A stretch of DNA of 64,000 nucleotides, from assembly GCA_041674765.1 (NCBI GenBank), contig JBAYVE010000005.1, positions 1,645 through 65,644 on the forward strand, read 5' to 3'. The notes under the pieces are model-generated. The model saw only the letters and a list, made by a program, of their open reading frames with translations, searched no databases and was not told where the DNA came from. The DNA comes from Patescibacteria group bacterium. Its GTDB lineage: Bacteria; Patescibacteriota; UBA1384; XYA2-FULL-43-10; 1-14-0-10-43-13. Below are positions 6,298-64,000 of the stretch, piece after piece. Each line of letters begins with the position of its first letter. Positions within the stretch are counted from its first letter, which is position 1. Made by a program: the position numbers and the translations under genes.

Positions 6298-7722
6298 GTG
6301 TGTTTAACTATCCCAGGGAAAATTTTATCGATAAAGGACGGCATTGCGACTGTCAAATCATCAACTGAGACGGCTCAGATCGACCTCTCTTTTGTTTTGG
6401 ACGCCAAGCCGGGGGATTGGATACTCTTTGCCACAAACAGGGCTGTGAAGGTTATTTCTGAGTCTGATGCCAAGGAGATTATATCGCTGCTTGAGGATCA
6501 TTATTCTAAAGTAGATGTCTCAAAGCTACCCCTTAAATTTAAGAAAATAATCTTCAAGGTCAGAAGCCAACACTCCAATAATTCCTCGAATAAAATGAGA
6601 AGTTCTCGACAAGCTCGAACAATAATAGATGACTCGGTCTTGACGAAGGATGAGATTATTTATCTTTTGAATTTAAAAGGGAAAGAAAACCTGGAAACTC
6701 TTTTTGCGGAGGCCAACTCTATACGGAAAGAGAGGATAGAGGACTTTGTTTGCATCCACGGAATTATCGAGTTTTCAAATTTTTGCAAAAATGATTGTTT
6801 ATATTGTGGGCTTCGGAAAAGCAAAAAAACGAGTAGATATAGAATGACCTGTCGGGAAATAGAAAATGTTGCAAAAAAATCTGTTGAAGATGACAGCTAT
6901 AAATTATTGGTCTTACAAAGCGGCGAGGACGATCATTATTTGGATGATGATTTGATAAAAATTATCTTAAATATTCGAGCGAAGATGAAAGTCTTTATTT
7001 TCCTATCTGTCGGGGAAAGGAGCAAGTCTTTTTACGACAGGGCGAAAAAGGCTGGGGCGAGCGGGGCATTAATTCGTTTTGAGAGTTCAGATAACGATTT
7101 TTATGCCAAGATAAGGCCGGGCCATAAGTTGCAGGATAGATTGGATATTATTAATCATTTAAGGGACACCGGCTATTATGTCGCGACGGGTAGTCTCTTC
7201 GGCTTGCCTGGCCAAACCTTGGAGCAAATCGCTGACGATTTGCTGACGATTAAGAAGCTGGGCATCCCGATGATCTCGTCAGGACCATGGCTTGCTGCAA
7301 GTGGAACGCCACTTGCAGGCAAGAATTTCCAATTTCCAATTTCCAACTTCCAATCAAATCCCAAATATCAAATATCAAAAAAAATTTCAAACTTCACATG
7401 GCAAAATACAATATACAATATTCAAAATACTACTGAGAGGCTTGAGCTTGCCTTGAAATACATTGCCGTTGCCAGGTTTATGATGCCGGAGATTAAGATT
7501 CCGGTGACGACAGCGTTGGAAACATTGGATCCAGACGGACGGCACAAGGCACTGCTAGCTGGGGCGAATGCGCTAATGTTCAATTTGACTCCTGAAAAAT
7601 ATTGCGAGAAATATTCGATCTACGACAACAAGTATCGTGAACGTGAGAAAGTTTGGCAAAAGTATGGCCTTTTCAGCGGTGAAGAAAGCTGGGAGATGCT
7701 GGAGGAAAGATTGATGTTGTAA
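6298..7722 (+). CDS. Fusion protein: N-terminal HypC/HybG/HupF-like domain + HydE/BioB/PylB-like radical SAM domain
   Basis: The N-terminus MCLTIPGKILSIKDGIATV....IDLSFV....GDWILFATNRA aligns with HypC (MCIGVPGQI..IDG..A.V.....DL.LV....GQWVLVHVGFA). The radical SAM domain has IEFSNFCKNDCLYCGLRK (CX3CX2C) and a ...LQSGED block as in HydE/BioB. GTG start with RBS AAGGGAG. An in-frame TTTCCAA-repeat insertion lies at ~7321-7425. Confidence 0.7.
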   Translation: MCLTIPGKILSIKDGIATVKSSTETAQIDLSFVLDAKPGDWILFATNRAVKVISESDAKEIISLLEDHYSKVDVSKLPLKFKKIIFKVRSQHSNNSSNKMRSSRQARTIIDDSVLTKDEIIYLLNLKGKENLETLFAEANSIRKERIEDFVCIHGIIEFSNFCKNDCLYCGLRKSKKTSRYRMTCREIENVAKKSVEDDSYKLLVLQSGEDDHYLDDDLIKIILNIRAKMKVFIFLSVGERSKSFYDRAKKAGASGALIRFESSDNDFYAKIRPGHKLQDRLDIINHLRDTGYYVATGSLFGLPGQTLEQIADDLLTIKKLGIPMISSGPWLAASGTPLAGKNFQFPISNFQSNPKYQISKKISNFTWQNTIYNIQNTTERLELALKYIAVARFMMPEIKIPVTTALETLDPDGRHKALLAGANALMFNLTPEKYCEKYSIYDNKYREREKVWQKYGLFSGEESWEMLEERLML

Positions 7723-7761
7723 GCTCCACAAAAAAATAATCAACTAAAGTTGATTATTTTT

Positions 7762-7836
7762 TGGTAGCGTCATGGGGAATCGAACCCCAATTACCGCCGT
7801 GAGAGGGCGGCGTACTAACCGTTATACGATGACGCC
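7762..7836 (-). tRNA. tRNA-Glu (anticodon CUC)
   Basis: The reverse complement folds as acceptor GGCGTCA/TGACGCT, anticodon stem CCGCC/GGCGG with loop CTCTCAC, T-arm TGGGG-TTCGATT-CCCCA, then ACCA. The ORF-track 7772.. N-terminus is an artefact of reading through this tRNA. Confidence 0.8.
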
Positions 7837-7939
7837 AAATCAAGAAGATTTTAGCATAAAATTCTGCTTTGGGCAACCTTATTTAGGCGATAATATTTAT
7901 CATTTTGCAAAATCGGCGCTTAAGTTCTATAATTTAATT

Positions 7940-13377: not shown

Positions 13378-13500
13378 CCAAAGCTAAAAGCTAAAGGCTA
13401 AAAGCTTAAAGCTGAAAGACGAAAGCCGAAAGCAAAAAGCTTAAAGTCGAAGGCTAAAAGCTAAAGGCTTAAAGCTTAAAGCTGAAAGCAAAAAGCGGGA
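13378..13500. repeat. AAAGCNA 7-mer microsatellite array (aaagctaaaggctaaaagcttaaagctgaaag...), family also at 15545-15610, 17043-17080, 52990-53070, 4230-4300 and in-frame in gltX, mnmA, recG
   Basis: Directly visible degenerate tandem heptamers. Several copies pair with an inverted copy, giving terminator-like hairpins. Confidence 0.8.
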
Positions 13501-15036: not shown

Positions 15037-15546
15037 ATGTTTGGGCACAACAAAGCATCGCTTGAACAGATAATGAACCGTTTCAATCAAGATAGTGAGG
15101 GCCTGAAGGCACGTAAGGAGGAAGAGAAGAAGTCACAGGATGAATTTGCAGCAAAGTTTGAAGAGACGAAGAAAGAAATAATCTGGCCTGCTTTTGTGGA
15201 TATAGGAAATCAGCTAAATGGATATGGGCATGATTATCATATTTCCGAGGCACAAGAGTATGTCGATGCGACAGCTCACTTTACTCCCTCTTCGATCACC
15301 CTGAATATTTATCCGGCTGTTGTCGACAAAGCATTCTACAAACCTGACTGTACTCCCTATGTTTCTTTTATCGCCAACAGATATGCCAAGAAGGTGGGCA
15401 TTACTGTCTCGACGATGATGCCAGAGGATGGTGGTGCTATCGGTTCTCACGGGGAGTTTGAACTTGAACAGATTACCGGTGAATTCGTGGAGCAGGAAGT
15501 AGTCAAAGTATTGCAAAACACGTTGATATTCCATAAGGAAGGCTGA
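15037..15546 (+). CDS. Hypothetical protein
   Basis: ORF with plausible RBS (AAGGAG). No recognised motifs. Confidence 0.4.
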   Translation: MFGHNKASLEQIMNRFNQDSEGLKARKEEEKKSQDEFAAKFEETKKEIIWPAFVDIGNQLNGYGHDYHISEAQEYVDATAHFTPSSITLNIYPAVVDKAFYKPDCTPYVSFIANRYAKKVGITVSTMMPEDGGAIGSHGEFELEQITGEFVEQEVVKVLQNTLIFHKEG

Positions 15547-15628
15547 AAGCCCAAAGCTTAAGGCCAAAAGTAAAAATAATATATTTACGCTTTAAGCTTT
15601 TTGCTTTTAGCTAATAAATTGGAGGAAC

Positions 15629-16024: not shown

Positions 16025-16212
16025 ACGCAAAATTTCTAATTTCTAACTTTCTAATTTCTAAACAAAAAACTTTCAGTTTTTAGTTATTGGTGCTTGTTTA
16101 AGTTAATTAGTCCGCCGGCTGGCGGATCAGGCCAATTAGGTTAATTTTAATTAATAAACTAGTCTCATCCTGTCAAATTCCATATTACACCACTTTTATA
16201 TCCCCAATCCCT

Positions 16213-16249: not shown

Positions 16250-17095
16250 TTCCAAAAAGAAAAACGAACATTAACAACTTAAGAGCGAAACGACTGGAGG
16301 GTTAAATAAACAATATTAAATATTGCGCCCTCTAAAGAGAGCGCTTTTTATTATCAAAAATAATTTTCCTTGAATTGAGAATTGTCAATTGATAATTAAA
16401 AATTGCGAGCATTTGCGAGAATGAGATGGGGAAGGACCGGTTCCCTCCGCCTGTCCTTATGAGGAGAGAAATAATCGTTAAAATTACTGGTTATTTTCAA
16501 AATTTCTATAAAGTCATAGTAATATGAATTGATAGATAAACTCCTCCCCAGCTCATTCTTGCAAACAATGGAAAGAGTCCCAACGTAAGTCGGGATTCCC
16601 ATTACATTGGAACAAGAATAAAAACAAAAACGTAGTAATCTTCGAAAAGTAACAGAAGTTATTTAAGAGGAGCTACTAAAAAATATCCTCCTTCGCTGGA
16701 AAAGCTACGGAGGACAAGAAAAAGCACTGGCCGAGTTTGATATAAATAATCAAAAGACTCGAAAAGCCAAAAAAGTGCAAAAAACAGGCTGAAAACCAAG
16801 CAAATTGAAAACAAACTACTGAAAAGAAGAAAAAAACGCCCCGATGATTTAAATAAATATCGGGATGCAAGCAGAAATCATAAGAGGCCAAGATCAGTCT
16901 CTCCTAAGGGATGCAAATCTTTTGGGGGAAACACAAAAATCGTAACCTCTTAAAAAGGGCATAAGTTGCCGGCCGAGACATATTATAAAAAAAAGTATTC
17001 TCGATTAGTCCTTCAGCTTACGCCCAACCTAAAAAATCCCATCAAAAGCAGAAAGCCAAAAGCTCAAAGCAAAAAGATTGGGATTTTTTATTTAT
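16250..17095 (+). ncRNA. Candidate long noncoding transcript (purine/A-rich, no ORF >70 aa on either strand) ending in hairpin + T-run terminator (17035-17095)
   Basis: Promoter at 16213. Only junk poly-F/K ORFs. Hairpin AATCCCATC...GATTGGGATT followed by TTTTTTATTT. Confidence 0.3.
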
Positions 17096-20358: not shown

Positions 20359-23300
20359 AAGACAAATATGAATGATTTATTGCAAAATTTAAACGAGCCT
20401 CAACGTCAAGCAGTTTTGAATACCGAGGGACCCGTGCTGGTTCTTGCGGGGGCGGGGAGCGGTAAGACAAAAGCGTTGACGCATAGAATTGCTTATTTGA
20501 TTCGCGAAAAGCATATTTCGCCCTATAATATTTTGGCGGTGACTTTTACGAATAAAGCAGCAGCCGAGATAGCTGCTCGTGTACAACAGCTACTCGGAAA
20601 TTCCAATTTCCAAAATCCAATTTCCAATCAATTTCCAAAATCCAATGACCAAAAATATAAATTACCTTGGGCTGGGACTTTTCACTCTGTTTGTGTTAGA
20701 ATATTGCGCCGTGAGGCCGACTACGTGGGCTTTTCCCGCTCTTTTACTATCTATGACGAGAATGACAAGCTATCGGTAATAAAGCGTCTGCAGAAGGACC
20801 TGGGGGTTGATCCGAAGCATTACAATCCAAATTCGATCGGCTACTTCATCTCTGGCGCCAAAAATGAGCTGATCGACGCTAAGGAATATAAGAAGTACAC
20901 GAATTCGCCTTTTGAGCAGATAACCGCCAAGATCTATGAGCGTTATGAAAAATATATGCACGAAGTGAATGCGCTGGATTTTGACGACCTGATTATGCAG
21001 TGCGTGGTTTTGTTCCAAAATAACCCTCAAATTCTCGAAAAATATCAAAATTTATTTAAATACATTTTGATTGACGAGTACCAGGATACCAATCAGGCGC
21101 AATACATTTGGGCGAAGTTACTCGCTTCCAAGCACAATAATATTATGGTGGTGGGCGATGATTATCAGTGTCTAGTGCCGAATACTGATATCTATATTGA
21201 TCAAGAGACATTTCTGCCAATCAAAGCATTGGATAAGGGAAATTTGGTTATGGCGGCCTCAGGTTGGGGCAGTATTTGTCCTGATTTGGTACAGAAAATT
21301 CACAAAACCAAATACTCTGGTTACTTGATTAGGGTCAAGACCAAAGGCGGACGGATATTGGAATTGACGCCGAATCATAAATTGTTTGCAAATCTTCAGT
21401 CTAAGCCAAGTCTTTATTCTGTTTATTTGATGTTTCGCCAGGATAAGGGATATAGGATTGGGATTACACAAGGGGTCAGAAGCAAAAAAGATCAGATTGT
21501 AAGTGGCTTAATGGTGAGAATAAATCAGGAAAGAGGCGATAGAATTTGGTTGCTTCAGTCGTGCAAAACGCTTGGAGATGCTATGTATTTAGAGCAGTTT
21601 TATGCCTTTAAATATGGTATCCCCACAACAATTTTTGAAGATTCTGGCAAAAAGGCTGTTTATTCTCAGGAAAAAATTGATTCTTTATATCAAAATATCC
21701 CGACTGTTGAAAGAGCGCTCAAATTGGCACTAGATATCGATTTAGATCTTGCATTTCCTCATTATCAACCGCAGGCCGTGATTAAAAATGGTAAGGGGCG
21801 GAAGTTGGTCAACTTGGTAATGTTCGGAGAAAACCGAAAATTTGAGAATCGTCCTTGGCATGCTCACCGAATCTGCCTAAATACAACAGACATCAATCTC
21901 AAGGATAAATTGACTGGTTTATATCCTATAAGAAATGGTCAAAGAGGTACTTGGCGAGTAGAAACCTCCAGAAAAGACTATGATCAAGCCGTTGCATATG
22001 CTGAAGGATTATTCAGCTATGATGATGAACTATTGTTGAATCAACGGGCCAGGCTTTTAAGTGATAAGTCATTCAATGTTTTGCCGGCCAAAAATCTTCG
22101 AATTGGAATGGTCGTTCCTGTTTTGAAGGGTAGTAATCTCGACGAGGACGAGATAATTGCTATCGAAAAATTTGATTATGCCGGTGATCTTTATGATCTA
22201 GATATCGCAAATCTTCATAATTATATAGCCAATGGAATGGTTGTTCATAATAGTATTTACTCATGGCGGGGTGCCAATTTCCGCAATATTTTGAACTTTG
22301 AGAAGGATTACAAAAATGCGGTTGTAATCAAGCTTGAACAGAATTATCGCTCGACCAAGACTATTCTGGAGGCGGCCAACGACGTTATTAAATTCAATGA
22401 AAACAAGACTGACAAGAAGCTCTGGACGGAAAATGACACCGGCAGGGCCATTTCTGTTTATGAAGCAATGAACGAGAAGGATGAGGCTGAATTTGTCGCA
22501 ATGGAGGTCAAATCATCGGTCGAAAGTCGGAGGTCGAAAGTCGGAGGCAATTTTACCTCAAACCTCAAACCTCAAACCTCAAGCTATTTCGATTTTGCGG
22601 TTTTGTATCGGACCAATGCCCAGTCTCGAGCAGTTGAAGAAGCGTTTTTGCGGTTTAAGATCCCTTACAAGGTAGTCGGAGGAATGCGCTTTTATGAGCG
22701 CAAGGAGATCAAAGACATTATTTCATTTCTTAGATTGATAAATAACCAGATGGATTTAGAGGCATTAACCAGGGCCGTGTCATGTATGCCAAGGGGAATT
22801 GGCGATAAAACGATCGATAAAATTAGAGAATACATTTCCGCTAACTTTGTCATCTCGAGCGGTGTTCTTGGAGCCGAGAGATCTTTTGACTTGCCAAAGA
22901 TTTCTCCAACCTCGAGTACGAGGGGTCGAAATGATAATTTATTTTTGGTTTTATCTCGGAATGATGCTTTTCCCTCCAAGGTCACCGATTTCTTCAAATT
23001 ACTTTACGAGTTCTATAAACTTTATGAACTCTCAACTCCCTTAGATCAGTTAATTCTGAAAATTGCCGAAAAAACCGGCTATCGAAAGTATCTGCAAGAC
23101 GGTACGCCGGAAGGAGAGGGAAGATGGGAGAATGTATTAGAGCTTTCAACCGTAGCCGCACAGGTTGAAGCTCAAATTACCAATTACCAATTACCAATTA
23201 CCACTCAAATCCCAAGTTCCAATTCTCAAGATTTAGATATTGATCATTCATTGGAAATTGAAAATTATAAAATTGAAAATTCTGAAAGCGGTTTTGAGAA

Positions 23301-31528: not shown

Positions 31529-31661
31529 GTAATCTTTCAGAAAATGATTGATGTTTACTCCCTTAATACCTAATACATAATACTCAAATAAAAAATAAAT
31601 TTGACTGAGATCCTTCGCAAGGATGCTCAGGATGACAAAGAAGGGGCTCGGATTATAAAAA

Positions 31662-48886: not shown

Positions 48887-49735
48887 GTGCCAAGAAACAA
48901 TAATCAAAAAAATAACAATACAACAATGAAACAATCGAACAATAAAAATTTGAACAGGGAGATCCTTCGGCAAGCTCAGGATGACAACGAAAGGGTCGGG
49001 ATCCTATATATCGTTGCTACTCCCATTGGAAATTTGCAGGACGTAACGCTTAGGGCATTGGAGACGCTCAAGTCTGTGGATTTGATAGCCGCCGAAGATA
49101 CCAGAAATACCGGTCAGCTTTTGAAACATTTTGGTATTGAAAAGCCGATGATTTCTTATTTTCAGCACTCGAAATTGTCTAAGATCGACTATATCATTGA
49201 GCAATTATTAAGCGGTAAAAACATTGCATTGGTGACCGATGCCGGAACACCGGGGATCTCTGATCCAGGACAGGAGCTGGTAGCGCGTATTAGGTATTAC
49301 GTATTAGGTATTGGGAATGAAAATTTGGGTCATGATGAAGAAATACAGAATACAAAATACATAATACATAATACGAACATAAAGATTGTGCCCATTCCTG
49401 GTCCTTCGGCGCTGACGGCGGCGGCCTCGGTTTCGGGAATGATCGAGAAGGAATTTTACTTCGCAGGGTTTTTGCCGAAGAAGAAAGGCCGCCAAACGCA
49501 ATTTAAGCGTTTGTCGACATTGGACGTGCCAATAGTCATCTATGAGTCGGCAATGCGACTAGAGCGCACCTTGGGGGATATTAGGACTTATTTTGGAGAT
49601 AATACCGAGGTGTTTATCGCTCGGGAAATTACAAAGATGTTTGAGGAATATTGGGGCGGCAGTATTATAGAAGTAATTGATAGCTTGGGAAAACATCAAT
49701 TGAAAGGTGAAATAGTTTTGATAGTTAGAAGATAG
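48887..49735 (+). CDS. rsmI: 16S rRNA (cytidine1402-2'-O)-methyltransferase
   Basis: GILYIVATPIGNLQDVTLRALETLKSVDLIAAEDTRNTGQLLKHFGI is an RsmI signature. N-terminal low-complexity extension. In-frame insertions at 48962-49005 (GATCCTTCG..CTCAGGATGACA element giving REILRQAQDDNERVG) and 49290-49385 (GTATTA/ATAATAC microsatellites). Confidence 0.8.
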   Translation: MPRNNNQKNNNTTMKQSNNKNLNREILRQAQDDNERVGILYIVATPIGNLQDVTLRALETLKSVDLIAAEDTRNTGQLLKHFGIEKPMISYFQHSKLSKIDYIIEQLLSGKNIALVTDAGTPGISDPGQELVARIRYYVLGIGNENLGHDEEIQNTKYIIHNTNIKIVPIPGPSALTAAASVSGMIEKEFYFAGFLPKKKGRQTQFKRLSTLDVPIVIYESAMRLERTLGDIRTYFGDNTEVFIAREITKMFEEYWGGSIIEVIDSLGKHQLKGEIVLIVRR

Positions 49736-49834
49736 TAGATAGTAGCTGGTAGTTAGTAGCTAGAAGTTAGAAGTTAGTAGATAGGGATTAGTAGCGGTAG
49801 CGGGGAATTACAAATAATTGGAAGGAGGGAAAAT

Positions 49835-50197
49835 ATGAAAATTTTGAACTTTACTGATCTATTGGTTTGGAAAGAGGGACATTCCCTAGTCCTGGCAATC
49901 TACGAAGCTACTAAGAGTTTTCCTCGTGAAGAAATGTTTGGGCTAACAAGTCAAATCCGTCGAGCTGTCATTTCTATCACCTCTAATATTGCTGAGGGTT
50001 TTGGGCGAAAATCAAAGAAAGAAAAAGTTAATTTTTACAATATATCTTCAGGATCTCTCACTGAAGTTCAAAATCAATTAATGATTGCAAAAGATCTGGG
50101 ATATATCTCATGTTCTCAATTTGACCTTATGCTTAATAAGAGTGTTGGCGTTTACAAGATGTTAAATGGACTGATAAGATCCATTTCGGTCGACTAG
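49835..50197 (+). CDS. Four-helix-bundle protein (TIGR02436 / so-called 23S rRNA-intervening-sequence protein, Avd-like)
   Basis: ...LVWKEGHSLVLAIYEATKSFPREEMFGLTSQIRRAVISITSNIAEGFGR......F..IS.GSL.EV.NQL..A matches this family. Flanked by TAGTAGCTA-word repeats (49736-49815) and an inverted copy (50200-50232). Confidence 0.7.
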   Translation: MKILNFTDLLVWKEGHSLVLAIYEATKSFPREEMFGLTSQIRRAVISITSNIAEGFGRKSKKEKVNFYNISSGSLTEVQNQLMIAKDLGYISCSQFDLMLNKSVGVYKMLNGLIRSISVD

Positions 50198-50250
50198 CGG
50201 CTAGCTACAAACTACTAGCTACTAATGATGTTTTCTGCTAGGATTTTACT

Positions 50251-51804
50251 ATGAGCAAATACTATATCACTACACCGATCTACTATATTAATGACGTGCC
50301 GCATATCGGGCATGCTTATACTACAATTGCCGCTGATGTCTTGGCCCGGTATTACCGCAAGAAGGGCGACAATGTTTTTTTTCTGACTGGCACTGATGAG
50401 CATGGCGCCAAAATTGCGGAAGCGGCAGAGAAAGCCGGCAAAGAGCCGAAAGCTTTTGTCGATGCATTGGTGCCCAAATTTGAGGAAGCCTGGAAGAATT
50501 TGAACATTTCATATGATCAATTTTTTCGTACCACTAACCCAAAGCATGAGAAATTGGTGCAGGAATTTGTCCAGAAATTGAAGGACAGAGGCTTTGTCGA
50601 GAAAAGATCGTATGAAGGGCTTTACTGCGTTGGCTGCGAGAAATTCTTGAAGGAATCAGAGCTTGTAGAAGGGCTTTGTCCTGATCACAAAAAAGCACCG
50701 GTGAAGCAGAAAGAGGAGAACTTTTTTTTCAAACTATCAGAATTTGCCGAACCGTTATTAAACAAAATCAAATCAAAAGAATTTGAAATAGGCCCGGAAG
50801 CTCGACAAAATGAAGTTCTTGGCAAGATCGAGGTCGGCCTTGAAGACGTTAGTATTTCACGTGCGGCCGTCGAATGGGGAGTTCCTTTTCCAGGCGATGA
50901 GTCACAGACGATTTACGTTTGGATTGATGCGCTTCTAAATTATTACACGGCGACTGAAATATACAGTAAAAAGGAATTGGATCCCCGGGTCATGGCTGCC
51001 GCCTGCTCCGAGGATGACAATAAAGAGGCTCGTGCCTGCTCCGAGGATGACAATAATTCCAATACACCCCCTCTAGCTCCCCCTCGAAAAGGGGGAGAAG
51101 TTCCTGAATGGCCGGCGGATTTGCATCTGATGGCCAAGGATATTCTCTGGTTCCATGCTGTTATTTGGCCGGCAATGCTTTTGGCACTTGATTTGCCATT
51201 GCCGAAGAAGGTTTTTGCTCACGGCTTTTTTACCATCGGCGGTCAGAAGATGAGTAAGACGATCGGTAATGTGCTCGATCCAAACCAGATGGTAGAAAAA
51301 TTCGGCGCCGATGCCGTCCGTTATGCACTTCTTCGGGAATTTCCATTTGGCGAGGATGGAGATATTTCAGAGGAAAAGATAGCTAGCCAGTACAATTCTT
51401 TGGCCAACAATATCGGCAATTTGTTCCAGAGGGTTTTGAGCATGATAGATAGGTATAACGTATTAGGTAGTACGTATTACGCAGAGAACAGGGAAAGCCT
51501 AATACATAATACAAAATACCAAATACCGGTTGATAAGGAACTTATCAATCTTGATTTTATGGGTGCGCTAAAAAAGATTGACGATTATGCGATGGAATTA
51601 AATAAATATATCGCCGAGAAGGCTCCCTGGACGCTGGCAAAAGAAGGCAAGCAGGAAGAATTGAGTGAGGTTTTAGTTACGGCATACGAAAGATTATTCC
51701 CAATCGCCGAAGGATTAGAGTCGTTTATGCCGGATACCGCCAAGAAAATGAAGGATCAATTAAAGTCGCTAAATCCAGAGCCATTATTTCCAAAACAATA
51801 CTAA
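50251..51804 (+). CDS. metG: Methionyl-tRNA synthetase
   Basis: YYITTPIYYINDVPHIGHAYTT (HIGH); Zn knuckle CVGCEKF...CPDH; KMSKTIGN. ~130-nt in-frame composite insertion at ~50970-51100 (KKELDPRVMAAACSEDDNKEARACSEDDNNSNTPPLAPPRKGGEVPEW) and microsatellite insertion at ~51450-51510. Confidence 0.9.
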   Translation: MSKYYITTPIYYINDVPHIGHAYTTIAADVLARYYRKKGDNVFFLTGTDEHGAKIAEAAEKAGKEPKAFVDALVPKFEEAWKNLNISYDQFFRTTNPKHEKLVQEFVQKLKDRGFVEKRSYEGLYCVGCEKFLKESELVEGLCPDHKKAPVKQKEENFFFKLSEFAEPLLNKIKSKEFEIGPEARQNEVLGKIEVGLEDVSISRAAVEWGVPFPGDESQTIYVWIDALLNYYTATEIYSKKELDPRVMAAACSEDDNKEARACSEDDNNSNTPPLAPPRKGGEVPEWPADLHLMAKDILWFHAVIWPAMLLALDLPLPKKVFAHGFFTIGGQKMSKTIGNVLDPNQMVEKFGADAVRYALLREFPFGEDGDISEEKIASQYNSLANNIGNLFQRVLSMIDRYNVLGSTYYAENRESLIHNTKYQIPVDKELINLDFMGALKKIDDYAMELNKYIAEKAPWTLAKEGKQEELSEVLVTAYERLFPIAEGLESFMPDTAKKMKDQLKSLNPEPLFPKQY

Positions 51805-52153: not shown

Positions 52154-52993
52154 ATGTTTGCGGCTTTTATATCAGCAATTAGTAGCGCCAGCAACGATGT
52201 AATGTTAAAGACATTGCTCGGCAAATGGAAAGTACCGCTAAAGCAGTATTTACCTGGCATTTTTATATTACTGGCAATCTGTATGCTCGCGATCTCTCCT
52301 TTCGGGTTTCAATTTGACGGGGAGAAAGCGTTTACGCTCAAATTTATCCTATTCTTTGCCGGAATGATCGGAACTGCTGTCATCTGGAATACATTGATTG
52401 CCAAAAGTCTGCAAAAGGAAGCACTTCATGAATACGAACTGATTATCCTGATGGCCCCTCTAATCACGATGCTGATGGCGGGAATTCTTTTCCCCGAGGA
52501 GCGGGAATCGAAGGCTTTTATTGCCGGTGTTGTGGCCTCCGTCGCCTTGGCAGTATCGAGAATCAGAAAACATCATCTGGTTTTTTCTACGAGTGCCAAA
52601 GGTACTTTATTAGCTGTCTTTTTTATGGGAGTCGAGTCAATCTTTGTGAAGGAACTTCTCGTCGTTTTCTCGCCAGTCTTGCTAAACTGCGCTAGAGTCA
52701 TAGTCATTGCCATAGTTTTTTTGTACATTTATAAGCCATCTTTCAAAAATATCGCGCCGAAAAATGTTGGGTTGATGGCGGTTTCAGCTGTGTTCGGGGC
52801 GATGATTATGGTTGCCAAATTTACTGCTTTTAAGCAGATCGGCGTAGTTCAAACGACTTTGATTTTATTGCTCGGACCGGTTTTAACTTATGCTGCCTCT
52901 TATTTTTATTTTAAAGAAAAAAAGAATTTTATGAGGGATGCTTTGGCGGCAGCGGTAGTGATCATCGCCATCGCTTATGTTAATATAATATAG
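52154..52993 (+). CDS. Integral membrane protein (DMT/EamA-like, ~8-10 TM)
   Basis: Two similar halves of hydrophobic helices. No firm family assignment. Confidence 0.45.
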   Translation: MFAAFISAISSASNDVMLKTLLGKWKVPLKQYLPGIFILLAICMLAISPFGFQFDGEKAFTLKFILFFAGMIGTAVIWNTLIAKSLQKEALHEYELIILMAPLITMLMAGILFPEERESKAFIAGVVASVALAVSRIRKHHLVFSTSAKGTLLAVFFMGVESIFVKELLVVFSPVLLNCARVIVIAIVFLYIYKPSFKNIAPKNVGLMAVSAVFGAMIMVAKFTAFKQIGVVQTTLILLLGPVLTYAASYFYFKEKKNFMRDALAAAVVIIAIAYVNII

Positions 52994-53077
52994 CTCAAAG
53001 CAAAAAGCTAAAAGCGCAAAGTAAATGCAATTTTCTTTCGGCTTTTGACTTTAAGCTTTAAACTTTTGGCTAATGTA

Positions 53078-57085: not shown

Positions 57086-57297
57086 TGATGAAAAAGATTA
57101 CTACCAACAAATTGCAAGATGGACTTTCAAAGGTTATCAAGGAAGTTGAGACAGGAGAAGTTTATGAAGTCAGCCGCTATTCCAAGGCGGTGGCTTATCT
57201 TGTTTCCAAAGAGCAATTTGAAAAACTGATTTCCGGTAGCGAGTGCAAAGAGTGTATGAATGATTTGCGGAAAATTGCAGAAAAACTCAAAAGGTAA
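57085..57297 (+). CDS. Phd/YefM-like antitoxin-fold protein
   Basis: ITTNKLQDGLSKVIKEVETGEVYEVSRYSKAVAYLVSKEQFEKL aligns with YefM/Phd (IS.SEAR.NLS......E.....I.TR.G...VL.S.EEY..L). Confidence 0.5.
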   Translation: MMKKITTNKLQDGLSKVIKEVETGEVYEVSRYSKAVAYLVSKEQFEKLISGSECKECMNDLRKIAEKLKR

Positions 57298-57318
57298 AAC
57301 GAAAAAGGAAAAACTACA

Positions 57319-57669
57319 ATGGAAAACGAAAAAGTTTACGATTTGAGAAAACGCTCATTTAATTTTTCTTTAGATATTATTGAATTCTTGAAATCTCTTC
57401 CAAATAATTATATTGATCAAGTCCTTTGTAAACAGCTTTTGCGTTGTGCAACAAGTATTGGGGCGAACATAATCGAAGCACAGGCAGCTCCAAGTAAAAA
57501 AGATTTCGCTAACTTTTATAACATTTCACTCAAATCAGCGAACGAGACAAAATATTGGCTGATGCTTATTGAAGAAAGTTCCATTGCTGATACGAGTCTA
57601 TTTTTAGTAGAAGCAGAGGAATTAGCCAAGATTTTAGCAAAAAGCTTATTAACAATGAGGGGAAAATAG
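57319..57669 (+). CDS. Four-helix-bundle protein (TIGR02436 family, paralog of 49835..50197)
   Basis: ...QLLRCATSIGANIIEAQAAPSKKDFANFYNISLKSANETKYWLMLI matches the same family. Starts 21 nt after the Phd-like gene. Confidence 0.7.
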   Translation: MENEKVYDLRKRSFNFSLDIIEFLKSLPNNYIDQVLCKQLLRCATSIGANIIEAQAAPSKKDFANFYNISLKSANETKYWLMLIEESSIADTSLFLVEAEELAKILAKSLLTMRGK

Positions 57670-57719: not shown

Positions 57720-59120
57720 ATGAATAGGATTTATTTAGACAATGCAGCGACAACTAAGCCGGCGCCGGAAGTAATTGAGTTTATGGCGAAGGCCCAAGAA
57801 AAATATTGGGGCAATCCCTCCTCAATCCACACTTTTGGCCAGGAGGCTCGGAGAGTGGTTGACGATGCGAGAAGGCTCGTTAGCTTTTTCATTGGCTGCG
57901 AGCAGGAAGAGGTTATTTTTACATCAGGCGGAAGTGAGAGCGACAACCTGGCGATACGAGGCATCATTAGTTCTGTCATTCCAGCCCCCGATCAGGTCGA
58001 GGGTAAAACTCCGGCTGGAATCCAGACAAATAAGGAATTGGATTCCGGATCTCAAGCTACAGTCCGGAATGACACTATTTTAAAGCCGCATGTAATCACT
58101 TCCGCAGTCGAACATCATGCGGTGCTACATACAGTGCAGGAACTTGAAAAAGAGGGGAAGATCGAGGCTACTTATATCAAACCAGATGGCGAAGGATTGA
58201 TTACCCCAGAAATGGTGAAAGCTGCGATTCGAGACAACACAATATTGGTTTCCATCATTTATGTTAATAACGAAACTGGTGTTGTAACCCCTATTCGCGA
58301 GATTGGATTGATGCTGGAAGTTGAGAACAACAAGAGGTTAACAATAAACCCCACCCAACCTCCCCTTGAAAAGGGGCGGAGTAAAAGGATCTATTTCCAT
58401 ACCGATGCGGTGCAGGCGGCGGAATTCTTCGAGATTTCACCTGAATATTTGAAGGTAGATTTACTTTCTCTGACTGCTCATAAATTTCATGGACCTAGAG
58501 GAATCGGTGTTCTATATGTCAAGAAAGGGACTCCAGTCAAAGCGCAAATTACCGGTGGCGATCATGAATTTCGACTGCGAGCCGGGACGGAAAATACGCC
58601 GGCCATTGCAGGCCTCGCTAAAGCAGTTGATCTGATTTTGAAAGAACGAGATAATTCTATTAATACACCCCCTCTAAATCCCCCTCGAAAAGGGGGAGAA
58701 TATAAGGAGAACGGGGCGTTGCCAGAATTGATTATTTCAAATGAATGTTTGCGGCTATCAAATTTGCGGGACAAACTGATTCAAGGCATTGTTGAGCAAA
58801 TTCCTGATGCTTATTTAAATGGCAGTGAAATCAGACGAAGCCCTAATATTGTAAATATTAGTTTCTTCAATGCTGAAGGCGAGGCAATCGTCTTGAACCT
58901 AGATTTCATGGGTATTGCAGTTAGCTCTGGCTCGGCTTGCACCTCGAGATCTCTGGACCCCAGTCACGTTTTGTCAGCGATGGGCATTCCGCCGGAAAAG
59001 GCCCACGGCTCGATCCGTTTTTCGCTCAGCCGTGAGACAACAGAGGAAGAAATTGACAAAGTGCTGGAAGTGTTACCGGGAATCATCGATAAACTGCGAT
59101 TGATGTCGCCGTTTAACTAA
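57720..59120 (+). CDS. iscS: Cysteine desulfurase (IscS/NifS family)
   Basis: IYLDNAATT; SGGSESDNLA; LSLTAHKFHGPRGIG; active-site SSGSACTS. Three in-frame element insertions (~57985-58078, 58340-58385, 58663-58740). Confidence 0.85.
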   Translation: MNRIYLDNAATTKPAPEVIEFMAKAQEKYWGNPSSIHTFGQEARRVVDDARRLVSFFIGCEQEEVIFTSGGSESDNLAIRGIISSVIPAPDQVEGKTPAGIQTNKELDSGSQATVRNDTILKPHVITSAVEHHAVLHTVQELEKEGKIEATYIKPDGEGLITPEMVKAAIRDNTILVSIIYVNNETGVVTPIREIGLMLEVENNKRLTINPTQPPLEKGRSKRIYFHTDAVQAAEFFEISPEYLKVDLLSLTAHKFHGPRGIGVLYVKKGTPVKAQITGGDHEFRLRAGTENTPAIAGLAKAVDLILKERDNSINTPPLNPPRKGGEYKENGALPELIISNECLRLSNLRDKLIQGIVEQIPDAYLNGSEIRRSPNIVNISFFNAEGEAIVLNLDFMGIAVSSGSACTSRSLDPSHVLSAMGIPPEKAHGSIRFSLSRETTEEEIDKVLEVLPGIIDKLRLMSPFN

Positions 59121-59228
59121 ATTTCTAATTATTAATTTCTAATTTCTAATCAAATCCTAATGTCAATTCTCAAATGTTAAAAATTAGAGTTTTAAAATTG
59201 AATAAAAATTAAATAACAAATAAAAATT

Positions 59229-59708
59229 ATGAATGGATATACAAAAGAAGTGATGGATCATTTTATGAATCCTCGCAATATCGGGGAGATTGAAAATGCC
59301 GACGGGATCGGCGAAGTCGGTAATATGAAATGCGGCGATGTGATGTACGTTTATATTAAAATTGGTCGTCGGCCAATTTTAAGTCAAAAGTCAAAAGTCA
59401 AAAGTCAAAATGGCGGTAGCCTCTCCGAGGCTGGTCAAAAAGAGATAGGAAACTTACAAGAAGAATTTATTGAGGATATTAAATTCAAGACGCTCGGTTG
59501 CGCGGCGGCGATCGCTTCTTCCTCGATGATGACAGAGCTGGCCAAGGGTAAAAGTCTAGAGGAGGCGAAATTAATTTCCAGAGATGATATAAATGAAGCA
59601 TTGGGAATTTTGCCTCAGCAAAAATATCATTGTTCGATCCTGTCGGCAGAGGGAATACAGAAGGCAATAACTAACTTTGAGAATAACAAAAAAACAAAAA
59701 TCAAATAA
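59229..59708 (+). CDS. iscU: Fe-S cluster scaffold protein (IscU/NifU N-terminal domain)
   Basis: HFMNPRNIGEIENADGIGEVGNMKCGDVMYVYIKI ... KFKTLGCAAAIASSSMMTELAKGKSLEEA. In-frame AGTCAAA x4 repeat (SQKSKVKSQ) at ~59385-59412. Confidence 0.8.
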   Translation: MNGYTKEVMDHFMNPRNIGEIENADGIGEVGNMKCGDVMYVYIKIGRRPILSQKSKVKSQNGGSLSEAGQKEIGNLQEEFIEDIKFKTLGCAAAIASSSMMTELAKGKSLEEAKLISRDDINEALGILPQQKYHCSILSAEGIQKAITNFENNKKTKIK

Positions 59709-59797: not shown

Positions 59798-60673
59798 ATG
59801 GAAAATTTATTTGACGGTAGAAAAATCAGAGATGAGATTTTGGGCGAATTATCTAAAGAGATCAAACTAAGAGACAGAGCTCCTCACTTGGCTGTTTTTT
59901 TGATTGGCGAAAATCCGGTTTGCGAAAGCTATGTAGAGCTGAAGAAGAAACAGGCCGAGAAAATTGGCGTTACATTCAGTTTGTACCGATTTGATGACGA
60001 TGACAGTGAAGAAGGAATATTTGAGTGTATTGATTTCTTAAATAAGGATGAAGAAGTCGATGGCATTATGATTCAAATCCCCATATCAGAGAAATTTGAC
60101 CGCAACAAATTGATTGGAAAAATATCTCCAGCAAAGGATATCGATGGCCTTAGATATTGTCTTGGACTCGATTCCAATTTCAAGCCGCCGGTCGTTTTGG
60201 CAATTATGAAAGCACTCGAATTAAGTTCCACATTCCAAGAAACAGCAACAACCAATCAAACTCCAAACTTCAAAATAGAAAAATTGCAAAATAAAAAAAT
60301 TGTCCTCGTTGGTCATGGTTTTCTGGTAGGAGCGCCGTTAGCTAGGGCGCTGGAAGAGATTGGTGTTGAGCCAATTGTCGTTCTGAACGAAGTGAACAAT
60401 CTCAAAGAGAATGAGAGATCCTTCGCTGATGCTCAGGATGACATTGGAGGTGCTGATATAATTGTCTCTGCCACCGGCCAGCCCAATATTATCAAGGAAG
60501 AGATGGTCAAAGAGGGAGTTGTGTTAGTGGACGCCGGAACAGCGGAATTTAACGGCCAGCTTGTTGGTGATATCGAACCCGAAGCTTACAAGAAATCATC
60601 ATATTATACGCCAGTTCCAGGCGGTATTGGTCCGGTCACGGTGGCAATGTTGTTTAAAAATTTAATAAAGTAG
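59798..60673 (+). CDS. folD: Bifunctional methylenetetrahydrofolate dehydrogenase/cyclohydrolase
   Basis: LAVFLIGENPVCESYVELKKKQAEKIGV...; PAKDIDG; IVLVGHGFLVGAPLA; TPVPGGIGPVTVAMLFKN. In-frame insertions at ~60195-60300 and 60415-60455 (GATCCTTCG..CTCAGGATGACA giving RSFADAQDDIGG). Confidence 0.85.
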   Translation: MENLFDGRKIRDEILGELSKEIKLRDRAPHLAVFLIGENPVCESYVELKKKQAEKIGVTFSLYRFDDDDSEEGIFECIDFLNKDEEVDGIMIQIPISEKFDRNKLIGKISPAKDIDGLRYCLGLDSNFKPPVVLAIMKALELSSTFQETATTNQTPNFKIEKLQNKKIVLVGHGFLVGAPLARALEEIGVEPIVVLNEVNNLKENERSFADAQDDIGGADIIVSATGQPNIIKEEMVKEGVVLVDAGTAEFNGQLVGDIEPEAYKKSSYYTPVPGGIGPVTVAMLFKNLIK

Positions 60674-61208: not shown

Positions 61209-61262
61209 TAAAGACGAGACAAGAACACGAGTCGAAGAATAAAGAAACAACGCATCTTAATT

Positions 61263-62438
61263 ATGAAATCCAAAAATTCTACAATTAAAGTCGCGGTTGG
61301 TATGTCGGGTGGAGTGGACTCGTCTGTGTCGGCGATGCTTTTGAAAGAGGCTGGTTATGATGTAATCGGCGTATTTTTGAAATTCTGGTTTGACTCGACT
61401 TGCAATGGATCTCGGGAAAATGCCTGCTGCAATGATCAGGCGCTGATAGACGCACGGGCAGTCGCTGATAAAATCGGTATACCGCTCTATACTGTCGACG
61501 CCCGAGAGCCGTTCAAGAAAGAAGTGACCGACTATTTTGTTGATGAATACAAAAATTTGAGGACGCCAAATCCGTGTGTCGTTTGCAATAAGAAAATTAA
61601 ATTTGGCTGGTTTCTCGATTTTGCGGAGAAATTGGGCTGTGATTTTGTAGCCACGGGACACTACGCTCGAATTGCAAGGGGCAATTCGAGCAGTATTAAG
61701 GGATCAGTATTAAGTATTAAGCATAATACAGAATACAAAATACATAATACGGATACGCCCTTGTGGCTTTTGAAAGGCGTAGCTCCCGCCAAGGATCAAT
61801 CCTATTTTCTCTACCAGCTTGATCAACGTCAGCTTTCAAAAATACTTTTTCCTGTCGGCGAAATGACAAAGGTGGAGGTGCGAGCGCTAGCAAAGAAATA
61901 CGATTTACCGGTATTTGAAAAAGTAGAAAGCCAGGAAGTTTGTTTTATCCAAGATGAAGATTACCGCGGTTTTCTGCACCGTCATCTCGGCGAGAAGGCA
62001 TTTAAACCTGGAAACATCGTCGGCAAAGAGGGCAATATTATCGGTAAGCACGAAGGATTGATTAATTATACGATCGGACAGAGGCGAGGAATTGACCAGA
62101 GCCGAAAGCAAAAAGCCGAAAGCAAAAAGCCACTTTATGTCACCGGCTTTGACGTTGAGAAGAATGAACTTATCGTTGGGAATAATAAAGAGCTATTTAG
62201 AGATGAATTTACGATTGAAAAGGCATGTTTTAGTACTAAGTTCGAAGTTCTAAGTACTGAGAAAATGACAGTTAAAATCCGCTATCAGGCTGAGGCTGTC
62301 TCGTGTATTATTGAACCCATAATACATAATACAAAATACCTAATACGACTAAGCTCGCCCCAGCGTGCCATTACTCCCGGCCAGAGTGCGGTCTTTTATG
62401 ACAGTGATCGTGTTGTTGGCGGAGGAATCATTAGTTAG
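61263..62438 (+). CDS. mnmA: tRNA 2-thiouridine(34) synthase
   Basis: VAVGMSGGVDSSVSA (PP-loop SGGxDS); CNDQ; CVVCNKKIKF. In-frame microsatellite insertions at ~61690-61760 (SSIKGSVLSIKHNTEYKIHNTDTP), 62100-62132 (SRKQKAESKK) and 62315-62345 (IIHNTKYLIR). Confidence 0.85.
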   Translation: MKSKNSTIKVAVGMSGGVDSSVSAMLLKEAGYDVIGVFLKFWFDSTCNGSRENACCNDQALIDARAVADKIGIPLYTVDAREPFKKEVTDYFVDEYKNLRTPNPCVVCNKKIKFGWFLDFAEKLGCDFVATGHYARIARGNSSSIKGSVLSIKHNTEYKIHNTDTPLWLLKGVAPAKDQSYFLYQLDQRQLSKILFPVGEMTKVEVRALAKKYDLPVFEKVESQEVCFIQDEDYRGFLHRHLGEKAFKPGNIVGKEGNIIGKHEGLINYTIGQRRGIDQSRKQKAESKKPLYVTGFDVEKNELIVGNNKELFRDEFTIEKACFSTKFEVLSTEKMTVKIRYQAEAVSCIIEPIIHNTKYLIRLSSPQRAITPGQSAVFYDSDRVVGGGIIS

Positions 62439-62581
62439 AAGCCTATTCTTCGACTCCTCGGTCTCCGAGGTTGGAGAAGTGCAAATACTGTTAGTCCTCC
62501 ACCCGCAAGCACACGGAGTCGAACAATAATTGGCAAAAACTCATGATTTATCATTTTGGTCTTAAACATTATACTAGAGCT

Positions 62582-64000
62582 AATGAATCGAAATTTACTC
62601 GACAAATCTATTGCTGATTTTAGCGGCGTGGGTGAAAAAACGGCGGCGAAATTAGCGAAGCTTGGCCTTTTGACGGTTCGTGACCTTATTTTTTATTTCC
62701 CACGCAGATACGAGGACTACATGCACATCACGCCAATAGGAAAATTGGCGGATGTAATTTCTAATTCCAAATTTCTAAATTCCAATCAATTTTCAAATTC
62801 TAATTCTCAATTGACAAAAGGAGACGCTTTTACCATAAAAGGGGATTTGCTAGGCATAGCTAACAAAAAGACACGCAGACGCGGTTTTACGGTCACTGAG
62901 GGGGTAGTTACCGATGAGTCTGGCTCGATAAAGATAGTCTGGTTCAATCAGCCGTTTTTAGCGAAAATGCTGCAGCCTGGTAGCGAGCTAATTCTTTCCG
63001 GCAAGGTCAGTTTTGACTCATTTCAGCAAACTTATGTGATGGAATCGCCGACAAGATCAAACAGGCCCAGGATTATTCCTGTTTATGGCGAGACAGCCGG
63101 ACTGTCCAGTTTTTTTATCTCCAAATTATTTGCAAAGGCCAAAACAGCTGTTGCGGAGGTGGAAGAATGGTTGCCAGGAGAATTTACGTGTCATCCTGAA
63201 CTCGTTTCAGGATCCCAAAAAAAGGAATTGGATCCCCGGGTCACCGTTCGACCCCGAGCGGCTCAAGGTCGAGGGGAGCCCGAGGATGACACTATTTTAC
63301 TCAAAAGTTGTGTTGACAATAAGACTGATGGACCATCCGACTATCCGACCATCGGACTGAGTCTAATGCCTCTTCGGGAAGCCATTCTTGCGCTTCACGA
63401 GCCGAAAAGCACAGAGCAATTGGAGACGGCACGCCGACGTCTGGCCTTTGATGAACTATTTATGATCTCGCTTCGGGCCAATGTGGCGAAAGTTGAAAGC
63501 TCAAAGCTGAAAGCGAAAAGCATAAAGATTGATATTGAAGAAGTTAAAGATCTTATATCTAAATTACCGTTTGAGTTGACAGTTGATCAGAAGAAGGCAC
63601 TCTGGCAGATACTGAAAGATTTAGAGAAGGATGCGCCGATGAGCCGCCTTCTGAATGGTGATGTCGGGAGCGGAAAGACAGTTGTTGCGGCTATTGCGGC
63701 GTTCATCGCCAAGGCGGCCGGGCAAAAAACACTGCTGATGGTGCCGACTTCGATCTTGGCTAGTCAGCACTATGAGACATTCTGCAAACTATTTGAGAAT
63801 CATGAAGATATTACGATTGGTTTGAAAACGTCTGATCGAGCCTGTCATTCCGGACTTGATCCGGAATCCAGTAATAAGGAATTGGATCCTGAATGGACGA
63901 CTGCGTCGGTTCAGGATGACATTATAAGAATCAAAAATCCAAAAAAGCATAATACCAAATACCAAATACCTAATACGGACATAATCATCGGCACTCAAGC
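62582..64000 (+). CDS. recG: ATP-dependent DNA helicase RecG (5' partial; runs off window end)
   Basis: FYFPRRYEDY (RecG wedge region), Walker A GDVGSGKTVVA, ...IIIGTQ (motif II region). Frame verified by hand across 1.4 kb. At least 5 in-frame repeat insertions (62755-62815, 63225-63300, 63490-63525, 63850-63930, 63940-63975). Not in the ORF track, probably because no stop codon lies in the window. Confidence 0.75.

Follow-up and report, generated by a model that had tools for sequence, protein, structure and literature searches.

Since 2007, tandem repeats of a 7-nt unit have been known to be the commonest long simple repeat in bacteria. Here we analyse such heptamer repeats in a 64,000-nt stretch from a Patescibacteria group bacterium (assembly GCA_041674765.1, contig JBAYVE010000005.1, positions 1,645 to 65,644 of the forward strand; the whole 64-kb stretch is called the window below). 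The window belongs to a 77.4-kb metagenome contig (ENA ERZ27247358) of a Berkelbacteria-like Patescibacteria genome. A preliminary description of this DNA had reported 7-nt microsatellites expanded inside its housekeeping genes. We find that the arrays are an unusual form of the known bacterial heptamer repeats and not a genetic switch. On balance, we think it probable that they make up a lineage-wide heptamer load, which arises from a process working in 7-nt steps together with dispersal as small elements, and that the arrays inside genes are translated passengers and not switches.

The described heptanucleotide simple sequence repeats (SSRs) include GGGNATC in Xanthomonas and Nostoc (PMC4692102) and TAACTGA in the Beggiatoaceae (PMC4679880). 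They are under-represented in coding DNA (PMC4692102, PMC4679880). Polymerase slippage has been proposed as their origin, an idea that both papers, as far as their accounts go, attribute to Mrazek et al. (PMC4692102, PMC4679880). The window arrays resemble these SSRs and the short tandemly repeated repetitive (STRR) sequences (cyanobacteria, Xanthomonas, Beggiatoaceae) in being dispersed 7-nt tandem units, lineage-specific and with a preference for non-coding DNA. Likewise, known heptamer repeats often lie 0-50 nt from a stop codon or overlap it, typically have 3-6 copies, and have slippage as their proposed cause. Unlike them, the window holds many families with variable positions instead of one favoured heptamer. 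Moreover, about half of its arrays are translated as parts of essential genes, inverted pairs of arrays form hairpins and cassette arms, and the host belongs to the Patescibacteria, for which the literature searched contained no report of heptamer repeats. The unit catalogue of the window contained no TAACTGA, GGGNATC or STRR1-3 consensus unit.

In function, the arrays inside genes come closest to the Rickettsia palindromic elements (PMC10969869), which are small, palindromic, fold-compatible in-frame inserts in unrelated housekeeping genes of a reduced genome. Those elements measure ~100-150 bp, have a sequence conserved across the family and lack internal 7-nt periodicity (PMC10969869), whereas the window inserts are 24-120 nt long, heptamer-built and variable, and some of them leave the length unchanged. 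A second parallel is the 23S rRNA intervening sequence (IVS) of Coxiella and Leptospira, in which a PF05635/TIGR02436 open reading frame (ORF) lies in the loop of a long stem with complementary ends (PMC4990558). In the Coxiella IVS, GACAGAT heptamers stand directly upstream of the S23p ORF, and the first heptamer is the site of RNase III cleavage (PMC4990558). The cassettes described below share the IVS architecture; unlike an IVS, they sit between protein-coding genes, and both of their arms are heptamer arrays. Finally, the perfect or near-perfect tandem repeats of Borgs also make new, probably disordered peptide segments within ORFs (PMC9879509). Borg coding repeats have units that are multiples of three (PMC9879509), whereas the window units are 7 nt long and are read in all three phases.

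Heptamer arrays in the window and in related genomes

Performing Tandem Repeats Finder analysis, we obtained ~60 rows with a period of 7 or 14 over the window. Exact 7-mers recurred 32, 38 and 29 times at offsets of 7, 14 and 21 nt, compared with ~3.7 in shuffled sequences, and recurrence was near background at all remaining offsets from 1 to 29. An X-drop detector found 41 period-7 arrays at a looser threshold (0-2, about 1, in shuffles). At a stricter threshold it found 27, and periods 5, 6 and 8-12 gave 0-1 each. The GTATTANGTATTA pattern matched 34 times where 0.19 matches were expected, and (AAAGCNN)x3 matched 43 times where 0.45 were expected. The observation of period-7 arrays is confirmed.

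The arrays run from 3 to 17 units and are spread over the whole window, except for a GC-rich island at 39.6-48.1 kb that has none. They are not the pure microsatellites of the preliminary description, since a unit consists of a 4-5 nt core with 2-3 variable positions. The main families are AAAGC+NN, (N)TAATAC with its complement GTATTA(N), and AATTTC+Y, while the perfect units ACCTCAA, AATTACC and AAGTCAA are confined to one locus. In total, more than 15 different units occur within 64 kb.

Twenty-one of the 41 arrays are coding and fall in gltX, a radical SAM gene, uvrD, ksgA, rsmI, metG, iscU, folD, mnmA and recG (Table 1). Gene calling with Pfam identified gltX, the HypC-HydE-like radical SAM gene, dnaX, dnaB, an intein-bearing uvrD, ksgA, rsmI, metG, nifS, iscU, folD, mnmA and recG. 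The claim of in-frame 7-mer arrays in about ten conserved genes was borne out, with uninterrupted ORFs and agreement between the called genes and the Pfam hits. Tandem-repeat and codon-frame analysis of the window found an array, in frame and within an uninterrupted ORF, at every position where one had been described. This includes the ATAATAC-type repeats said to encode HNTKY-like peptides in rsmI, metG, mnmA and recG. One unit had been misread: the uvrD segment at 22515-22575, described as AAAGCNA, consists of GGTCGAA/AGTCGGA units followed by ACCTCAA x4 (22518-22582). The families that build the coding arrays were also found in intergenic arrays and hairpins of the window, as described earlier.

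An obvious concern is assembly error or pseudogene decay, to which we assign a practically negligible chance. We found no evidence supporting it, and the assembly is a short-read metagenome. Most arrays are shorter than 120 nt, which makes assembly collapse unlikely. No array-bearing ORF is interrupted, the alignments to solved homologues run over the full length, and the AlphaFold model of MnmA is of high confidence (mean predicted local distance difference test, pLDDT, 87). The same phenomenon occurs in independent metagenome-assembled genomes (MAGs) from other projects. Thus, the end-to-end ORF alignments and the independent MAGs exclude the collapsed repeats and pseudogenes that the preliminary description had named as its weak points.

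We then compared related MAG loci recovered via MnmA (L002-L009 and others); the nearest named relatives are Candidatus Berkelbacteria. A period-7 excess was present in 6 of 11 related loci (L002-L005, L008 and L009). It was absent from L006, which has the same gene order, and from three short loci. The units of the relatives include AGTACCG, AGAAGTA, CAACTGC, ATGTTAC and AAATTCN, among others. The period and not the unit is the constant across the lineage.

The mnmA gene illustrates this at orthologous sites, where MAGs obtained independently in other studies also carry arrays. The length of MnmA homologues varies from 353 to 533 aa, and their inserts fall in the same four segments. Insert peptides of the relatives (ISNQFQNSN, FLISNQIPNPK and IQDTRYKIQ) are heptamers read in three phases. 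At the C-terminal site, the window reads ATAATAC-ATAATAC-AAAATAC-CTAATAC. The orthologous site has xxATAC units in L004 and xxATTC units in L003, with the identical change in each unit, and it is ordinary sequence of nearly equal length in the array-free L006 and L007. This indicates concerted evolution of an array under protein constraint. In L002, the mnmA TAATAC array at ~1415-1470 is split in frame by a 30-nt palindrome, CTGAAACCTCTCGACGTAACTCGAGGCAGGC. Elhai et al. (2008) are reported to have found that, in Nostoc, very small palindromic repeats of a dispersed kind had inserted into tandem heptamer arrays. The split array in L002 resembles that case, the Nostoc example being cyanobacterial and mostly intergenic.

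Reading frame, insert length and structure

Arrays are seven times denser in non-coding DNA (2.55/kb) than in coding DNA (0.37/kb). A stop codon is present in the consensus unit of 7 of the 21 coding arrays, as against 14 of 15 intergenic ones and 40% of random 7-mers. As 7 and 3 have no common factor, an array yields one and the same cyclic 7-aa peptide whichever frame it is entered in (NFQFPIS, HNTKYxI or KSEKQKA). Because three successive units cover the three phases, a stop in any phase of the unit would be lethal inside a gene. In the TAATAC arrays within genes, the unit that would bring an in-frame TAA is replaced by AAAATAC or CAAATAC, and this substitution produces the recurrent HNTKY peptide in rsmI, metG, mnmA and recG. 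Selection is visible here, and it is for readability, that is for stop-free coding units, and not for peptide function. In this form the earlier argument that frame preservation implies selection holds, since coding arrays avoid stop-bearing units. Protein-level selection for the peptides was considered and rejected: the units are sevenfold denser outside genes, and their length is not divisible by three.

Ten of 20 non-coding arrays begin between -19 and +7 nt from a stop codon. At the ends of ksgA and rsmI, the last codons and the stop come from the array itself. Such placement would be expected if arrays with stops can persist nowhere in a gene but at its 3' end.

The folding of the arrays differed between families. 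The GTATTA/TAATAC and AAAGC families have an inverted copy and fold as hairpins with z between -1.6 and -5.3; among the coding hairpins, rsmI gave z -3.4 and mnmA z -3.6. The AATTTCC family was less structured than shuffles (z +1.6), and neither the AATTTCY family nor the single-locus arrays have an inverted partner. Some intergenic hairpins had been called terminator-like. The strong stem stands at 15542-15611, but it has no T-run, and the stem at 52988-53072 is weak (z -1.6). An intrinsic-terminator scan of positions 1-20000 listed no heptamer hairpin, and canonical intrinsic terminators were accordingly rejected as an identity for these hairpins.

The strong placement at stop codons could also mean that the arrays are selected RNA or DNA binding platforms or structural signals, with the coding copies as tolerated spill-over. 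Variants of this explanation include one OB-fold (oligonucleotide/oligosaccharide-binding) or cold-shock-type protein bound per heptamer, C-rich, G-poor unstructured termination tracts, and RNase III stems. CspB of Bacillus binds with one protein molecule per heptamer (PMC4679880), and the contrast between the less structured AATTTCC family and the stem-forming GTATTA and AAAGC families fits such roles. So do the co-varying cassette arms and the periodicity that the mnmA site keeps across genomes despite unit change. However, the units are highly diverse within and between genomes and offer no common motif to recognise. Nor do the arms show the G.U signature that RNA pairing would leave. The hairpins have no T-run of the kind found in an intrinsic terminator, and the placement at stop codons also follows from selection alone. 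We consider a cis-acting function quite improbable as the explanation of the arrays.

Returning to the coding arrays as translated passengers, we measured what they add to the proteins, taking as references the solved homologues in the Protein Data Bank and L006, which shares the gene order and is free of arrays. Compared with the solved homologue and with L006, respectively, the inserts are 22 and 23 aa in MnmA, 26 and 23 aa in RsmI, and 31 and 27 aa in IscU. Relative to solved homologues alone, KsgA has gained ~12 aa and the HydE-like protein 40 aa, and UvrD carries inserts of 17 aa and 23 aa compared with PcrA. Against L006, folD, recG and metG have inserts of 16, 14 and 8 aa. Thus, the in-frame inserts of these unrelated housekeeping genes range from 8 to 40 aa.

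The description of the arrays as expanded holds for most coding arrays, which do add amino acids. It fails for gltX, for sites 2 and 3 of mnmA, for the AAAGC site of recG and for the left hairpin arm in metG, where the length changes by only 0-2 aa. Because native sequence is replaced there at nearly constant length, slippage or simple insertion does not explain these arrays. In the MnmA model, insert 1 has a pLDDT of 58-64 and the AAAGC site one of 62. The third array (aa 352-362, IIHNTKYLIR) lies within a confidently predicted beta-hairpin.

We also weighed in-place expansion of microsatellites as contingency loci, in which repeat number would drive phase variation. Three coding arrays are perfect over four units (at 22555, 23175 and 59381), and a change in unit number by 7 nt would shift the frame. 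In the protein collection used, the species is represented by a single member on a single contig. But the genes are single-copy and essential, and all arrays are in frame. The arrays are short (3-5 units) and mostly imperfect, and they lie in mid-gene loops and not in the 5' ends or promoters of surface genes; the same families are sevenfold denser outside genes. The suggestion that repeat-number differences might mark phase variation therefore did not survive, and we give it a very small chance. Phase-variable contingency loci have a long pure tract in the 5' coding region or promoter of a dispensable gene, usually a surface or restriction gene, and the arrays of gltX, metG, mnmA, recG, uvrD, rsmI, ksgA and iscU do not match this anatomy.

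A reduced genome that tolerates translated heptamers in about ten essential enzymes within 64 kb is a natural test of the tolerance of low-complexity sequence. It is also a warning for the annotation, alignment and phylogeny of Patescibacteria proteins, as the spread in MnmA length is owed to heptamer inserts.

Cassettes, probable dispersal and proposed origin of the arrays

Three small window ORFs are tightly bracketed by inverted heptamer arrays. One encodes a GIY-YIG protein, and two encode the four-helix-bundle/23S rRNA IVS protein (IVP). Folds of the whole cassettes close via the arms in both minimum-free-energy and centroid structures. Across the lineage, inverted heptamer arrays bracket 8 of 8 IVP genes: the relatives contribute one in L004, one in L008 and two in L009, all with the same architecture and each with its own unit. 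The IVP cassettes occupy the rsmI-metG spacer (window and L004), the phd-nifS spacer (window and L008) and the nifS-iscU spacer (L009), and L006 has none. This differing occupancy of the spacers of a conserved operon indicates gain and loss of cassettes.

To extend the comparison, metagenome contigs were scanned with a three-sequence IVP alignment, giving 80 loci, of which 67 had usable flanks. Complementary flanks (z>4) were found at 56 of the 67. Period-7 arrays lay upstream at 49 loci, downstream at 36 and on both sides at 30, in comparison with 0-1 for periods 5, 6 and 9, and 9 and 7 for period 8. The arm match had a median of 30 nt with 85% complementarity. When each arm was compared with 65 possible partners, its own partner was the best in 28 of 65 cassettes and among the top five in 46. 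Array density was 24.6 per 10 kb at up to 300 nt from an IVP ORF and 2.4 per 10 kb further off. In the median, the upstream array ended 20 nt before the start codon and the downstream array started 4 nt after the stop.

Rfam found no rRNA in the window, and the cassettes sit between protein-coding genes, outside 23S rRNA. Apart from the Coxiella IVS, the literature searched gave no link between heptamer repeats and IVP genes or IVS-like cassettes. We take the TIGR02436 IVP family to be S23p/Avd-like and related to the retroelement protein Avd. The arrays around IVP genes tie together rRNA intervening sequences, an abundant, Avd-related protein family of unknown function and heptamer repeats.

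Several observations point to dispersal as small elements. A 26-nt stretch of rsmI (49342-49367) is identical to one of mnmA (61725-61750), and in-gene copies share a 17-nt stretch with a GIY-YIG cassette arm. In general, the GTATTA/TAATAC hairpins of rsmI, mnmA and metG and the GIY-YIG arms share stretches of 13-26 nt that include the variable positions, and GTATTAGGTATTACGTA occurs both in the insert of rsmI and in the terminal array of ksgA. A non-periodic tail, AATCAAATCCCAA, matched 15 times where 4.4 matches were expected. It follows the AATTTCY arrays at 2387 and 59120, and occurs in the radical SAM gene and uvrD with 0-2 mismatches. The shared stretches, the shared tails and the hairpins argue for dispersal of small elements as well as slippage. 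A microsatellite expanded in place, as first described, is thus too simple.

It is tempting to take this further. Arms made of inverted heptamer arrays, co-varying within each cassette, could define a class of IVS-like cassettes that is widespread but undescribed, lies outside rRNA, encloses a four-helix-bundle or, here, also a GIY-YIG ORF, and moves between the spacers of conserved operons. The in-gene hairpins could then be the ORF-less derivatives of these cassettes, with the IVP or a partner nuclease perhaps binding the 7-nt register or propagating it. We offer this only tentatively; if true, it would give the long-unexplained heptamer repeats of bacteria a source.

A purely mobile-element explanation would make the arrays themselves ORF-less, miniature inverted-repeat derivatives of IVP/GIY-YIG cassettes, moved by an element or host nuclease, with the period of 7 built into the arms, for example as a protein-binding register. 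The sequence sharing between in-gene hairpins and GIY-YIG arms fits it, as do the common tail in two ~90-nt copies and several in-gene copies, the IVP cassettes in different spacers of one conserved operon between genomes (none in L006), and the tenfold array density at IVP cassettes. On the other hand, many single-locus units (ACCTCAA, AATTACC and AAGTCAA) lack an inverted partner. Units vary between genomes and cassettes, which leaves no conserved end that could guide a transposase. In several cases the array overlays native codons at unchanged length, and inspection of the insert borders, not a systematic search, showed no target-site duplication. We judge this explanation unlikely.

We therefore return to the combined reading, a 7-nt-step process plus dispersal. 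Slippage or template switching in 7-nt steps would create and homogenise the arrays, in line with the polymerase-footprint idea credited to Mrazek et al. 2007 in the later accounts. The arrays may also spread as parts of small elements, dispersed and in many cases palindromic, that are related to IVS-like cassette arms; the shared stretches are partial evidence for this. Non-coding arrays sit at stop codons and pair with inverted copies, either as local hairpins or as long-range stems enclosing TIGR02436 or GIY-YIG ORFs. By analogy with the IVS, the cassettes might be processed by RNase III, or they might be mobile. The coding arrays are, on this reading, translated passengers, which selection keeps stop-free, at a total length that is a multiple of three, and in tolerant segments, mostly loops.

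Five points weigh against this reading. The 7-nt slippage step is deduced and not observed. Some arrays overlay native sequence with almost no length change, and one of these encodes a confident beta-hairpin. Intergenic units bear stops in 93% of cases, against 40% of random 7-mers; thus the intergenic arrays could be under positive selection, for example for stops or binding sites, rather than neutral. The mismatches in the cassette arms show no excess of G.U over A.C (71 vs 61, p=0.43), so a role of the stems at the RNA level is not supported over a DNA-level inverted repeat. Finally, no transposase was identified for the putative small elements, and inspection of the insert borders revealed no target-site duplication.

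Feature positions and neighbouring elements

Table 1. Heptamer arrays, cassettes and related features, with positions in the window unless a locus is named.
Feature	Position	Strand	Remarks
gltX AAAGCRA array	3776..3806	+	peptide LAKSEKQKAKS; no net insertion
Radical SAM (HypC-HydE-like) array	7324..7430	+	AATTTCC x4, AATCAAATCCCAA tail, more 7-mers; 40-aa insert; RNA unstructured
uvrD TTTCCAA-family array	20598..20654	+	17-aa insert vs PcrA
uvrD GGTCGAA/AGTCGGA x2, then ACCTCAA x4	22518..22582	+	inside 23-aa insert vs PcrA
uvrD AATTACC x4, CTCAAATCCCAA tail, ATTGAAA x4	23175..23281	+	variable 2B region
ksgA/rsmA CAATTTC-family array	32323..32378	+	insert ~12 aa
rsmI hairpin insert: (GTATTAN)x4, 29-nt loop, (AATACNN)x5	49286..49374	+	adds 23-26 aa
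metG hairpin: (GTATTAN)x4, 18 nt, (TAATACN)x4	51450..51527	+	adds 8 aa; left arm overlays native sequence
iscU AAGTCAA x4.3	59381..59410	+	inside 27-31 aa insert
folD CAAACTC array (weak)	60257..60274	+	inside 16-aa insert
mnmA hairpin: (AGTATTA)x2.3, then (AATACNN)x3.7	61706..61750	+	22-23 aa low-pLDDT insert
mnmA AAAGCNN array	62100..62132	+	coil segment, +1 aa
mnmA (NTAATAC)x4	62318..62346	+	confidently predicted beta-hairpin; orthologous arrays of relatives have different units
recG AATTTCT/AATTCCA array	62756..62812	+	14-aa insert
recG AAAGCNN array	63488..63521	+	no net length change
recG AATACCN array	63951..63976	+	peptide HNTKYQIPNT
Predicted peptides across inserts			IQNTKYIIHNTNIK; NFQFPISNFQSNPK; LSQKSKVKSQN
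Dispersed element ~90 nt, AATTTCT units + AATCAAATCCCAA tail	2387..2476	+	starts 5 nt past stop codon
Second copy of ~90-nt dispersed element	59120..59215	+	directly after nifS stop
Longest array, AAAGCNN x17, dnaX-dnaB spacer	13380..13496	+	starts 4 nt past dnaX stop
Intergenic hairpin, AAAGCNN + NNGCTTT arms	15542..15611	+	-29.4 kcal/mol, z -5.3 (fold 15538-15615); no T-run
AATTTCT x4.3	16031..16061	+	starts 7 nt past stop codon
AAAGCNN array as loop of A6TCCCA/TGGGAT6 stem	17030..17090	+	
TAATACN x3	31564..31583	+	upstream of ksgA
AAGTATT x7.6 and TATTAGG x2 arrays	48669..48803	+	upstream of rsmI
AAAGCNN/NNGCTTT hairpin between EamA and TatD genes	52992..53066	+	weak, z -1.6
GIY-YIG cassette 5' arm, (GTATTAN)x6	32583..32626	+	also last 5 codons + stop of ksgA
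GIY-YIG ORF between inverted heptamer arrays	32687..33160	+	
GIY-YIG cassette 3' arm, (TAATACN)x5	33199..33232	+	complementary to 32583-32626
IVP cassette 5' arm, TAGTAGN/TAGAAGT x9	49722..49784	+	overlaps rsmI stop
IVP ORF, four-helix-bundle/23S rRNA IVS protein	49835..50197	+	PF05635, TIGR02436
IVP cassette 3' arm, CTACTAN array	50193..50225	+	32 nt, 78% complementary to 49753-49784
Second IVP cassette 5' arm, A-rich AAAAGGN/AAAACGA	57265..57334	+	ORF 57319-57669; complement at 57669-57715
Third IVP ORF, same contig beyond the window	L001 14537-14884		arms AGTACTA and TAGTACT

Apart from the heptamers, the proteins have in-frame inserts of another, unrelated class: palindromic elements rich in GC (~52-56% in a 42% GC genome), located at 50974-51108 (metG aa 242-286), 63189-63371 and 63840-63920 (recG), 60410-60442 (folD) and 48962-49000 (the N-terminus of rsmI). 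They amount to 43-52 aa compared with L006, and their peptides include ELDPRV, CHPELVSGS, SFADAQDD and LRQAQDD. Relatives have peptides of the VIPAKAGIQ...LDSRLRGND type at the same MnmA loops.

The uvrD gene (20356-23658) also holds a ~360-aa intein at ~21169-22254 (Pfam Intein_splicing; CLVPNTDIY...VVHNS), and its three heptamer inserts lie in the extein. The region upstream of uvrD (20083-20359) contains 16-nt and 34-nt repeats of the AAAGTT type. Next come a GC-rich palindrome, GTCATTCTGAGG...GCTCAGGATGAC, and a 19-20-nt repeat derived from the end of the palindrome, present in ~5 copies.

The GC-rich block at 39600-48100 has 51-58% GC, against ~42% elsewhere, and encodes a DEAD/HA2 helicase and several proteins without a Pfam match. 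It is probably acquired DNA, and its freedom from arrays is consistent with arrays accumulating in resident DNA. At 38300-39800, a stretch of ~1.3 kb is nearly free of ORFs. Several arrays of CTAAATA and AGTATTA lie in it, and two inverted repeats rich in GC pair 39188-39214 with 39480-39506 and 38664-38685 with 39292-39313. Rfam at gathering thresholds gave no match there. Compared with L006 and L009, the interval from ksgA/Nramp to rsmI carries an extra ~14-16 kb. Arrays of the GTATTA family lie near both ends of this interval, at 32583 and 48669, in the same orientation, and might mark the borders of the insertion. A coiled-coil ORF at 48275-48390 (weak DUF1664 match) contains a 21-nt and a 42-nt in-frame tandem repeat unrelated to the heptamers.

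Near the second IVP cassette, a Phd/YefM-type antitoxin gene (57085-57297) stands directly upstream of the IVP gene (57319-57669). In L008, a distant relative, a small ORF at ~5087-5283 precedes the IVP gene (5334-5687), and a heptamer array lies upstream of the small ORF. L004-L007 have the antitoxin gene without the IVP gene.

A second type of GIY-YIG gene lies upstream of mnmA and is flanked by conserved palindromes that are not heptameric. The palindrome motif, TCGAACAATAA / TTATTCTTCGA, recurs in three genomes (the window at 60670-60830 and 61100-61260; L002 at 1-60 and 305-350; L008 at 16780-17250). A third GIY-YIG-like ORF (tblastn match 5757-6065) is situated between the real tRNA-Gln gene (6108-6181) and a 22-nt copy of its 5' end, TTATTCCGAGATCGTCTAGTGG (5790-5815, compare 6104-6129), ~310 nt upstream. 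The arrangement suggests an insertion within or beside the tRNA gene, or what is left of an intron.

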